DNA of 64,000 nt, taken from the NCBI RefSeq assembly GCF_003790525.1, contig NZ_CP033635.1, one strand, 5' to 3'. Source of the DNA: Escherichia coli. GTDB lineage: Bacteria; Pseudomonadota; Gammaproteobacteria; Enterobacterales; Enterobacteriaceae. Position numbers: made by a program. Shown here piece after piece: positions 36,001-39,000 of the stretch (the stretch's first letter is position 1; the number at the start of each line of letters is the position of its first letter).

Positions 36001-39000
36001 ACCATTTCAGCCATGTTTCGGTGATGCGGAAAGTGCTGCTAAGAATGACCAGTTGGATGCATTATCTTTATTTGGATCATTAAATAATATTAATGTATTG
36101 AATCTTGTAAATGTGGTTGAGAGCAAAAAATTGCAAATACAGGACATGAGAATTCGCTGTTCAGGCAGCGAAACTCGAGCCCTTTTTGTCTAGTCCACTG
36201 AGAATATAAACGCTCCTTTGATGCCCAAAAGTGGACATTTAATTATTTCTTTTTACCTTGAGAGAAAACTGTTTCGGTGTAATACCAAAATAGCTCTTAA
36301 AGTTTCGAATGAAATAAGATGTACTGGTATATCCAACATCATATGCAATACTATTAATATGTTTTTCAGTGGATGTAATCATCTTTGCTGCATGATGCAT
36401 TCTGATATCTAACACCAACGCATTAAAGTTATTGTTTTCTTTTTCAAGTTTTTTTCTAATCGAAACCTCAGACATATGCAAAATATCCCTAAGATCCATT
36501 AACTTCCAATTTCTTGATAAATCTGATTCGATAATTTTTTTGATTTTTTCTGTAAAAGTGATATCTGTTGAAACTGATAGTGAATAAACAAGAGGTTCAA
36601 TTTCATGGATTCTGGAAAGTAAATAGGCTATTTTATAAACTTGTCTGTGTTTCGGTAAGTTATTATTAATCAGACGTTTAAAAATTTCTTTATCTGTTTC
36701 CTCAAGGATATAAAAAAATATTTTTTTTCTTATTTGACTCACTAGTTGATGGCCTAAAAGAAGTGGCTCCATAACCTTACACACGCTATTTAATAGATAG
36801 CTATCAATAGTATAGATATCATAAGGTATACCGCTGCCAAGCACTTTTAATGTTGCATCAACGACAAGATTCTTTTCTATATAGCATAAAGAAAAAGGAG
36901 GGATGTTAATAACATCTCCATCTTTTGCTTTAATAACTAATTGTGCATTTCTAATAAAAATCATTGCGCTATTATAAAAACGAATTTTTTTAATGTAAGT
37001 GTATGATTTTTGTCTAGATTTCTATTGACAGAGATGTCAAGCTTTGTACAAGTAACTCGACTATTCATAAAGCCACCTCATGCTTTGTATATATATAATT
37101 CCATGAGTTATTAAGTTGTGTAAACTCGAAAATTCAACGTGAGTTAATTTTAAACAATCTAACAAATAATTAAAAAAACAATGAATTATATGCGTAATGG
37201 ATGTAATCACTATAAGAATAATAATATTATCGTAATGAAATTATGCGTAATTAACGAGTCAATCCTCAGGTTCAATTGTTTGGTTAAAAAAAATTCTTAA
37301 TAATGCGGGTAATTTCCTGGTTGTTTTCATCCCCAACTTAACTTTGATGCGACTGACTCGATAATAGATTTTTTCTTTTGAGAGATTAGTCATTTTTGAA
37401 ATCTCTCTTACACTCTTACCATGAAAATAGAAAAGGTATAAAATCTCCATTTCAATATTATTTAAGGAGTTTATTGCTTCACTTACCGATGCCTTCTTTT
37501 TATGAATGTAGATAGAGTTATGATGTATTCTAATATTATTAGTATCAATACACTTTATCGATTTTCCGGATAACAGAAGACTATATGCATAATAATTTTT
37601 AATATCACAAATAAGATAAATCTCATTTGTATCAAAATCAGCTCTGACTATGTCATCGATTTCTGTAAAATCTATGCATCGAAATGTTTTGTTAATATCA
37701 GATATCAACCGCATCCCGTAATTGAAAAAATTATTATCACTGGCAAGTATAAAGACAAGATTCATACATATCCTAAAATATTATCTTTTATATTATGCGA
37801 CAACTATAAGATAAAGATTTTTTAATATCTACATTAAAAATATAAAGATTTGATAAAAAACTATAACTAATTAACCAGTAAAATAACAATAATTACTTTT
37901 AGTAGAGTTGAGTACTTCAGGTGACGCTCATTATCGTATGCATTTATATAAATGATCTATAATCATTTTTCAGTATAAGGTCGTTTCATGTTGTTGATCT
38001 GTTGAGGAATATTCATTGTCACAATTAAGATATGTTCAAGGTAAATGGTATGTTTTCTTCAAAAAATCCCGACTTCAATAGCAGACAATCTGTTGCCATC
38101 AAAAGAACAATTGAACTTTTACTATAGGCATGTCGTGACAGATAAGATTATGTTGTTAAATACACTCTAAAATTTAAATTTTACTTATCAAAACATTCAA
38201 TTTCCATGAGGATAACTTTAAATATAAATAAATGGCGCAATAAATAAAACTATTTCGTCCTTAATTTGAAGACTATTCATAACAAGCATAAAAAATAAAA
38301 ACATCAAGAATAAAAATGAAAGTTAATTTAGCGTGTGTTTTCTAAATAAAATAAAGAGATATAAAAACCAGATAATGAGGTTTTATTGTTGACCATCTTA
38401 TCTTATGCGAGGTAATTTTTGCGACGTTCATGAACTTCTGGGCATGAACAAATATAGGACTAACCGAATTTGGGGCTAACAATTCTTTAAAGGCTTTAAG
38501 GAGCATTAAATGAAAAAATTGGTTTTAGGTTCAGCTATTCTTGCTGTACTTGGGATGACTTCTACTGCAATGGCTGCAAACAGTGGTACTGTTAATTTTA
38601 CAGGGGCTGTATCCAGCGCAACGTGTGATCTTAAAGTTACAAATGCTTCTGGAGCTGAGATACCTACAGTTGATTTAGGTACTGTATCAACGACGGGAAC
38701 ACCTGCTTCAGTTCAATTTAAGCTTGTTCCTTCAGATAATGCTTGCTTGGCAAAAAATGGAGCCCAGATTAGCTGGACATCAAATAATTTAACAACCCAA
38801 GGTTTTAGCAATGCAACTACGGGGGGAACAAATGCATATATGGCATTACTTACTTCTAATGCCCAAGAAACTGGTGCGAGCTCATATGTTAAATCCGGTC
38901 AAACTACTTTTAACTATCAAGTAACTAGTGGCGGTATTCGATCTTTTGATTACAGTGCTTCGTTAGTTAAACCTACTGGTACTGTGACTCCAGGCGCATT

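Follow-up and report, generated by a model that had tools for sequence, protein, structure and literature searches.

What does a small helix-turn-helix (HTH) protein encoded beside a fimbrial operon regulate, and does it act alone? The question is raised by a gene of 168 amino acids (aa) in a 64,000-nucleotide (nt) stretch of the Escherichia coli contig NZ_CP033635.1 (assembly GCF_003790525.1), the whole of which we call the window. We refer to this gene as S and to an AraC-family gene next to it as R, both names having been coined for this analysis. A preliminary description had taken S for an orphan LuxR-type regulator with an unrecognised N-terminal domain. We found that S is a real gene under purifying selection, and that, far from being an orphan, it is nearly always accompanied by the AraC-type regulator gene in imported E. 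coli islands, which encode fimbriae and secreted proteases. With moderate confidence, we regard it as an atypical, phosphorylation-independent LuxR/NarL-like co-regulator that acts with R on the neighbouring island genes. The two genes and the two parts of S are located as follows.

37259..37765, minus strand: gene S, an ATG-initiated 168-aa open reading frame (ORF) for a truncated receiver-like domain and an HTH; called from the coding sequence WP_001054915 of the NCBI Prokaryotic Genome Annotation Pipeline (PGAP), family alignment A1 and the ratio of non-synonymous to synonymous substitutions (dN/dS)
37496..37765, minus strand: N-terminal domain of S, aa 1-90, predicted as beta1-alpha1-beta2-alpha2-beta3-alpha3-beta4 plus a beta-hairpin
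37280..37489, minus strand: C-terminal five-helix HTH region of S, aa ~93-162, whose recognition helix carries the conserved pattern K-I-Y-Y-R-x-x-x-I-K-x-K-L-G
36239..37069, minus strand: gene R of the AraC/XylS family, 276 aa when intact; frameshifted in the window, where a 241-aa ORF starts at an internal ATG

That S is a real gene follows from its length, since chance would very rarely leave 507 nt open in DNA as AT-rich as this: at 27% GC, with a stop frequency of ~0.085 per codon, the chance is ~4e-7 per start. Homologues at 30-53% identity have kept both the length and the conserved pattern (A1), and dN/dS was 0.18, 0.22, 0.10 and 0.16 in four independent pairs. The predicted protein has a size of 19 kDa. 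PGAP labels it 'sigma factor-like helix-turn-helix DNA-binding protein' in strain SMS-3-5, from which the 3 kb surrounding S in the window differ by one base; the same 3 kb are 100% identical to strain CM2.

In the window R lies downstream of S on the same strand, at a spacing of 189 bp (S end 37259, R start 37069). We defined the S-R cassette as a 160-173-aa S gene followed, 170-230 bp downstream, by a same-strand AraC-family gene of 273-279 aa, with a conserved promoter-like block between the two, and compared the window with 17 fetched loci; these 18 sources came to 13 distinct loci after merging near-duplicates. Pairing at this spacing and with an AraC-family gene of this size was found in 12 of the 13 (the window, L002, L003, L004, L006, L009, L013, L015, L017, L018, L019 and L026), and likewise in the near-duplicates L007, L008, L010, L014 and L016. 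The window carries such a cassette, with its block at 37070-37138 and R frameshifted. Pairwise identities of the two proteins co-varied across 12 loci (Mantel r=0.61, p~4e-4), R being much the more conserved of the two, with a mean pairwise identity of 60% versus 38% for S. By NCBIfam, the DNA-binding domain of R is HilD-, YdeO- and GadX-like, with all matches under the cut-offs.

The non-coding DNA of the cassette is conserved as well. A 10-locus alignment yielded one block before each gene.

37796..37859, minus strand: conserved block upstream of S, with TTATC-N9-TATTTTT, a poor -35 and the -10-like hexamer TATAGT; promoter-like match 37831->37803
37070..37138, minus strand: conserved block just upstream of the R start codon, with TTTACA-N18-AATTAT, a TG before the -10 and a Shine-Dalgarno sequence; promoter-like match 37124->37095

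Both blocks are kept across most loci though the S proteins are only 30-50% identical, and in the block before S the TTATC and TATTTTT elements are invariant. Searches with nhmmer recovered this block at the equivalent place in the majority of S-R loci (12 sources), with E values of 1e-8 to 1e-11, or 3e-4 for L013, these being self-matches by construction; it was not found convincingly elsewhere, the weak matches in L014 and L016 having E values of 0.025-0.2. The block before R, which resembles an extended -10 promoter, was recovered at 1e-7 to 1e-17 and at this position only. No terminator-like site was found between S and R. The motifs suggest that R would have its own, fairly good promoter and S one that depends on an activator.

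Which kind of domain precedes the HTH of S? At the sequence level, aa 1-90 matched nothing anywhere, and no sigma region 2 in particular. Pfam gave no Response_reg (PF00072) match to S even at E<=10 and no autoinducer-binding domain (PF03472), and a profile of the N-terminal domain matched no receiver in the PDB. The earlier view that the N-terminus is neither a receiver nor an autoinducer-binding domain thus held for the sequence, but not for the predicted fold: the structure model (pLDDT 85) shows an alpha/beta domain that resembles a truncated receiver, built of four beta-alpha units and a hairpin, so that what had seemed a wholly unknown fold is modelled as a reduced CheY-like domain. In A1, Y50 and C72 are invariant and G17, C53 and D54 nearly so; G17 is invariant in the N-domain alignment A2. 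D54 is at the C-terminal end of beta3, where a receiver has its phospho-acceptor, and the residue that comes just after beta1 varies across the family among D, E, K and N. The conserved Thr/Ser after beta4 and the Lys after beta5 were not found in the A1 family members, the alpha4-beta5-alpha5 face is missing from the model, which has no complete (beta-alpha)5 fold, and no histidine kinase gene lies between yibH and yibF, the island of the window. Because Thr/Ser, Lys and alpha4-beta5-alpha5 are lost, the beta1 residues vary and the island has no kinase, the modelled domain is a reduced, CheY-like pseudo-receiver rather than a canonical one; the first three losses make a protein-contact or dimerisation module its most likely role, not a phosphorylation switch. 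The outcome that the preliminary description had set against its own view, a canonical receiver with a kinase nearby, was not what we found, and its picture of S as a small transcription factor that joins an HTH to a non-canonical N-terminal domain gained support. Compared with NarL/FixJ response regulators such as EvgA and NarL (~200-210 aa), S at 168 aa is short, its receiver being cut to the four units and hairpin, without the Response_reg match, the Thr/Ser, the Lys or a kinase.

The HTH of S is real and stands on the borderline between LuxR and sigma-4. The only Pfam matches of S were to HTH models, namely Sigma70_r4_2 (7.9e-9, aa 94-144), Sigma70_r4 (2e-5) and GerE (0.016). Among 14 family members Sigma70_r4_2 reached 1e-3 in nine and GerE in none; GerE (PF00196) matched three of the 14 at E 0.1, which is weak at the sequence level. 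NCBIfam returned sigma-70 models, all under their cut-offs (TIGR02937 at 32.9 bits vs a cut-off of 42.9), and sigma-70 region 4 was the top match in Pfam, NCBIfam and PHROG alike. The top structural matches of the predicted fold were NarL, DegU and GerE; the model contains the LuxR/GerE four-helix effector fold, with the HTH in helices 2-3 and a further C-terminal helix, and the family profile matched LuxR-type HTH chains only, weakly (E 0.0035-0.1), among PDB sequences. Of the 'clear LuxR/FixJ HTH' claimed before, the HTH stands and both the fold and the PDB profile favour the LuxR type, but the clarity does not extend to the sequence: 'LuxR-type' is valid for the modelled fold of S, whose sequence match falls under the family threshold. 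The recognition helix is basic and well conserved in A1.

In the reading we favour, S would be a small cytoplasmic transcription factor that binds DNA through its LuxR/sigma-region-4-type HTH and uses its pseudo-receiver for self-association or partner contact. It would form the upstream half of a portable two-gene cassette in which R has its own promoter, and the two proteins together would activate AT-rich, horizontally acquired adhesin and protease genes nearby, here a Pef/AF-R1-type operon and a gene for a serine-protease autotransporter of Enterobacteriaceae (SPATE), probably by countering H-NS-type silencing. DNA binding, phosphorylation independence, cooperation with R, the targets and the H-NS counter-silencing are what we infer from the domains and the genomic setting. 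In the window strain, where R is frameshifted, the circuit may be crippled or altered. What distinguishes S is its truncated receiver-like domain, its sigma-4/LuxR borderline HTH and, above all, its conserved AraC-family partner.

The presumed targets lie on an island of ~12.7 kb, inserted between yibH and yibF in the order R, S, 744-bp gap, fimbrial operon, autotransporter; GC is 27-31% at the regulators vs 53-55% in the island flanks. As had been noted from the sequence, S is divergent from the fimbrial operon, which starts at 38510, and its position fits local control of the fimbrial island.

37766..38509, unstranded: AT-rich divergent control region of 744 bp between S and the fimbrial major-subunit gene, GC 0.27-0.35
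38510..44201, plus strand: Pef/AF-R1-type (kappa) chaperone-usher fimbrial operon, presumed target, from ORFs and profile scores
38510-39037, plus strand: fimbrial subunit, PefA-like at 8.8e-20
39109-41466, plus strand: fimbrial usher, 1129 bits vs a 'PefC/AfrB family usher' cut-off of 752
41474-42154, plus strand: fimbrial chaperone, 381 bits vs a cut-off of 248
42184-44201, plus strand: three ORFs past the chaperone, of 323, 173 and 172 aa
44373..48182, plus strand: S6-family serine-protease autotransporter (SPATE-like) at the far island end, second presumed target, from PGAP and an autotransporter barrel at 1.7e-52

The fimbrial locus is assigned to the Pef/AF-R1 (kappa) type because its usher and chaperone exceed the curated model cut-offs. 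At E<=1e-5 NCBIfam matched none of the ORFs of 323, 173 and 172 aa, which may encode minor subunits or adhesins comparable to orf5/orf6 of pef.

Across the compared loci, the S-R pair was accompanied by varying cargo: chaperone-usher operons of the Pef type or of other types, one or two SPATE genes, a type II secretion system, or SEF14/CS22-type fimbriae together with an AfaD invasin. SPATE genes lie beside the pair in eight other loci (L006, L009, L010, L014, L015, L018, L019 and L026), and in most loci no fimbrial operon runs divergently from S, which instead comes after a SPATE gene and its terminator. The yibH-yibF site itself holds two island types (window 36100-48200; L015, of the DS566-2 type, 8990-19130), both with the S-R pair and a SPATE gene. 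Their fimbriae differ in class and in gene order (subunit-usher-chaperone in the window vs subunit-chaperone-usher in DS566-2), and between them R is 82% identical, S only 51%. In sequence type 131 (ST131), the pair sits between both autotransporter genes of the tagB/tagC island; the description of that island shows the regulators only as 'hypothetical regulatory proteins' (PMC6592367).

Several observations weigh against the favoured reading. The receiver-like call comes from a predicted structure with ~10% identity to receivers, and unrelated Rossmann-like folds score equally; with its near-invariant Asp at the acceptor position, S may still be phosphorylated. Before fimbrial or SPATE genes, no convincing copy of the S-upstream block turned up, the best match (E=0.025) being in the SPATE/fimbrial intergenic region of L014. 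One distinct locus, represented by L011 and L012, is the exception to the pairing, in that the usual R is not next to S; two AraC-family genes do lie near, one truncated and ~36% identical to R, the other 24-32%. In L011 (5297-7616 and 11301-15895), the neighbours of S are an Aat-type ABC (ATP-binding cassette) exporter, two dispersin genes and an AraC-family gene resembling AggR/RegA, a setting that is an AggR/RegA-style regulon and not a fimbria/SPATE island. Finally, R is frameshifted in the window, and the 7-base tract responsible is common to 43 of 73 genomes, while S is still intact.

36985..36991, unstranded: homopolymer with the R frameshift, T7 on the plus strand (A7 in the R coding strand); SMS-3-5 has 8

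These 73 are the complete E. coli genomes with the island; around the tract, 43 were identical to the window, 29 were at 95-99% and one at 90-95%. PGAP flags R as a 'frameshifted' pseudogene in CM2 and CREC-544, and the gene is intact in SMS-3-5. At least two haplotypes carry the 7-base version, a pattern that could be either recurrent slippage (phase variation) or repeated loss or inactivation. A compensating indel was considered and rejected: the 1-nt insertion in a 99.8% haplotype falls in the spacer between S and R, and in PGAP R is a frameshifted gene there too. The 5' frame of R runs for 35 codons and its stop overlaps an in-frame ATG (ATGA at 36961-36964); a 241-aa R product from this internal start is conceivable. 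It may be that S works without R, or that the circuit as a whole is in decay; an intact S despite a broken R weakens a strict model in which S needs R.

That intact S is also the main evidence for the rival view that S regulates the divergent fimbrial operon locally and independently, with no functional tie to R and an adjacency that reflects co-inheritance in islands. Such independence would suit the divergent arrangement across the 744-bp control region, the separate conserved promoter-like blocks of S and R, and L011, where S occurs without the usual R adjacent. We nevertheless judge it fairly unlikely: order and spacing of S and R are constant in 12 of 13 distinct loci while the cargo changes between fimbriae, SPATEs and type II secretion, most copies of S have no divergent fimbrial operon to regulate, and the two genes co-vary.

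If the tie to R is functional, it need not be positive. S could be a negative modulator that titrates or competes with R, through heteromers or promoter occupancy, thereby holding the island silent or imposing a threshold. The tight linkage to an AraC regulator and the faster divergence of S (38% vs 60% mean pairwise identity) would agree with such a role. Small anti-activators of the ANR type are not known to carry an HTH. We consider a negative role unlikely on the whole, since S, at 19 kDa and with a conserved basic recognition helix, is at odds with its closest precedent. That precedent is the ANR/Aar group of small anti-activators, which are encoded beside AraC-type virulence regulators and measure ~8-9 kDa (ROD_02851, 8.9 kDa; PMC4038620).

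A third alternative takes the pseudo-receiver at face value, S being a working minimal response regulator whose D54 is phosphorylated by an unlinked kinase or acetyl phosphate and controls DNA binding. The near-invariant Asp at the beta3 end, the acidic residue that follows beta1 in most members, and the response regulator EvgA as top match of the whole model all speak for it. We hold it very unlikely all the same, given that Response_reg is absent at E<=10 together with the conserved Thr/Ser, the Lys and alpha4-beta5-alpha5, that the family member P0009 has Lys in place of the D54 Asp, and that the island has no kinase; the PhoQ-type kinase present in L013 is accompanied by its own OmpR-type regulator. 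That S might be an alternative sigma factor, or a sigma-region-4 mimic contacting RNA polymerase, is suggested by its top Pfam, NCBIfam and PHROG matches and by its public names, but is highly improbable given an alpha/beta aa 1-90 in place of any region 2, a TIGR02937 score of 32.9 vs 42.9 bits, and a structure that favours LuxR-type effector domains. With the sigma-70 factors of the extracytoplasmic function (ECF) type, S shares by profile the region-4-like HTH, yet it lacks region 2 and remains under the curated cut-off.

Extending the co-regulator reading beyond the window, we tentatively raise a wider possibility: S-R may be a portable 'master switch' for imported surface-factor islands in Enterobacteriaceae, S being an obligate co-activator or first cascade step for one AraC subfamily, with kappa and other fimbriae, SPATEs including TagB/TagC of ST131, and dispersin-type loci as targets, and with the slippage-prone homopolymer of R as an on/off switch. 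Provided that the pairing is functional, the activation of a set of acquired adhesin and protease islands, including the tagB/tagC SPATE island of extraintestinal pathogenic E. coli and ST131, would be explained by a single cassette.

Among known systems, the nearest functional analogies are the EvgA-YdeO-GadE cascade, in which AraC-type and small LuxR-type regulators cooperate, and atypical NarL-family regulators. GadE (175 aa) and MatA, which adjoins its own fimbrial operon, are similar to S in size and layout. GadE is under the control of the AraC-type regulators YdeO and GadX, and the DNA-binding domain of R resembles those of YdeO, GadX and HilD. The first ~33 residues of S weakly resemble the GadE N-terminus. 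Homology to the GadE family (20-member alignment) was nevertheless rejected, the hhalign probability being 8.7% over 33 N-terminal columns only. The comparison with MatA/EcpR (35%, 45 HTH columns only) and CsgD (2.6%, 34 columns, HTH only), which the preliminary description had proposed, aligned the HTH alone and placed S in neither family.

Two Pef-type systems also bear comparison. The AF/R1 pilus operon of the rabbit E. coli RDEC-1 belongs to the same fimbrial class as that of the window, whose usher passes the 'PefC/AfrB family' cut-off, AfrB being the AF/R1 usher after which this family is called. Work of 1999 by Cantey et al., in Infect Immun, is said to have found that this operon needs two regulators, the AraC-like AfrR and the small AfrS, acting together; an AraC regulator with a second regulator was thus apparently reported for AF/R1 pili long before, which limits the surprise of the S-R pair. 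Surprise is moderate in any case, as small LuxR-type regulators with degenerate receivers beside fimbrial operons are a familiar theme. As to AfrS being a relative of S, AfrR/AfrS provides a lead only: no S family cluster member bears the name AfrS, and afrS appears shorter than the S gene, at ~370 nt as scaled from the adhesiomeR bit-score table. AfrR has been named as the putative AraC-type factor of the AF/R1 operon (PMC6440114). The Salmonella pef locus, a Pef-type operon likewise, has one LuxR-type gene (orf7/SrgD, 116 aa) and one AraC-type gene (SrgC). In contrast to S-R, srgD and srgC are not adjacent, and SrgD is without the N-terminal alpha/beta domain. Homology of S to SrgD was rejected (hhalign probability 1.7%, HTH only); SrgC is 31% identical to R, in the AraC DNA-binding domain alone.

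In the control regions, neither repeats, direct or inverted, nor consensus promoters exceeded chance expectation, and Rfam gave no match on 36000-38700. The octamer TTATGCG(A/T) occurs on the plus strand in three copies within 1.2 kb, before R (37241-37248), before S (37793-37800) and ~100 bp before the fimbrial start codon (38403-38410); its count in the window, nine against 6.8 expected, is not significant.

The S family is small and, it seems, the S-R pair has so far gone uncharacterised: we found no family model and no accessible paper describing S. Word-indexed protein searches returned only three and six matches, so that an exhaustive search of representatives was needed; among 1.84 billion representative proteins it gave 26 matches at E<=1e-3, ~10 of which are full-length clusters, all from Enterobacteriaceae. 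Named members are all from Escherichia or Citrobacter, and tblastn added further copies on plasmids of Klebsiella, Enterobacter and E. coli. Databases call these proteins 'hypothetical', 'sigma factor-like' or 'sigma-70 family RNA polymerase sigma factor', and the sigma-factor name is misleading, the domain content giving it no support. Annotation of S is thus a problem on two counts: many records name it a sigma factor, and PGAP omits it from islands of the ST131 and DS566-2 types, where the ORF is intact (L014 10041-10520, minus strand, in the tagB/tagC island; L015 9995-10516, minus strand, in the DS566-2-type yibH-yibF island). Foldseek returned similar two-domain models of 156-166 aa at only 12-18% identity, A0A0H2V4I0 (CFT073), B7MPZ7 (ED1a) and A0A762BWM6 (Salmonella), as well as a 37%-identical member of the S family in Citrobacter rodentium, A0A482PS81.

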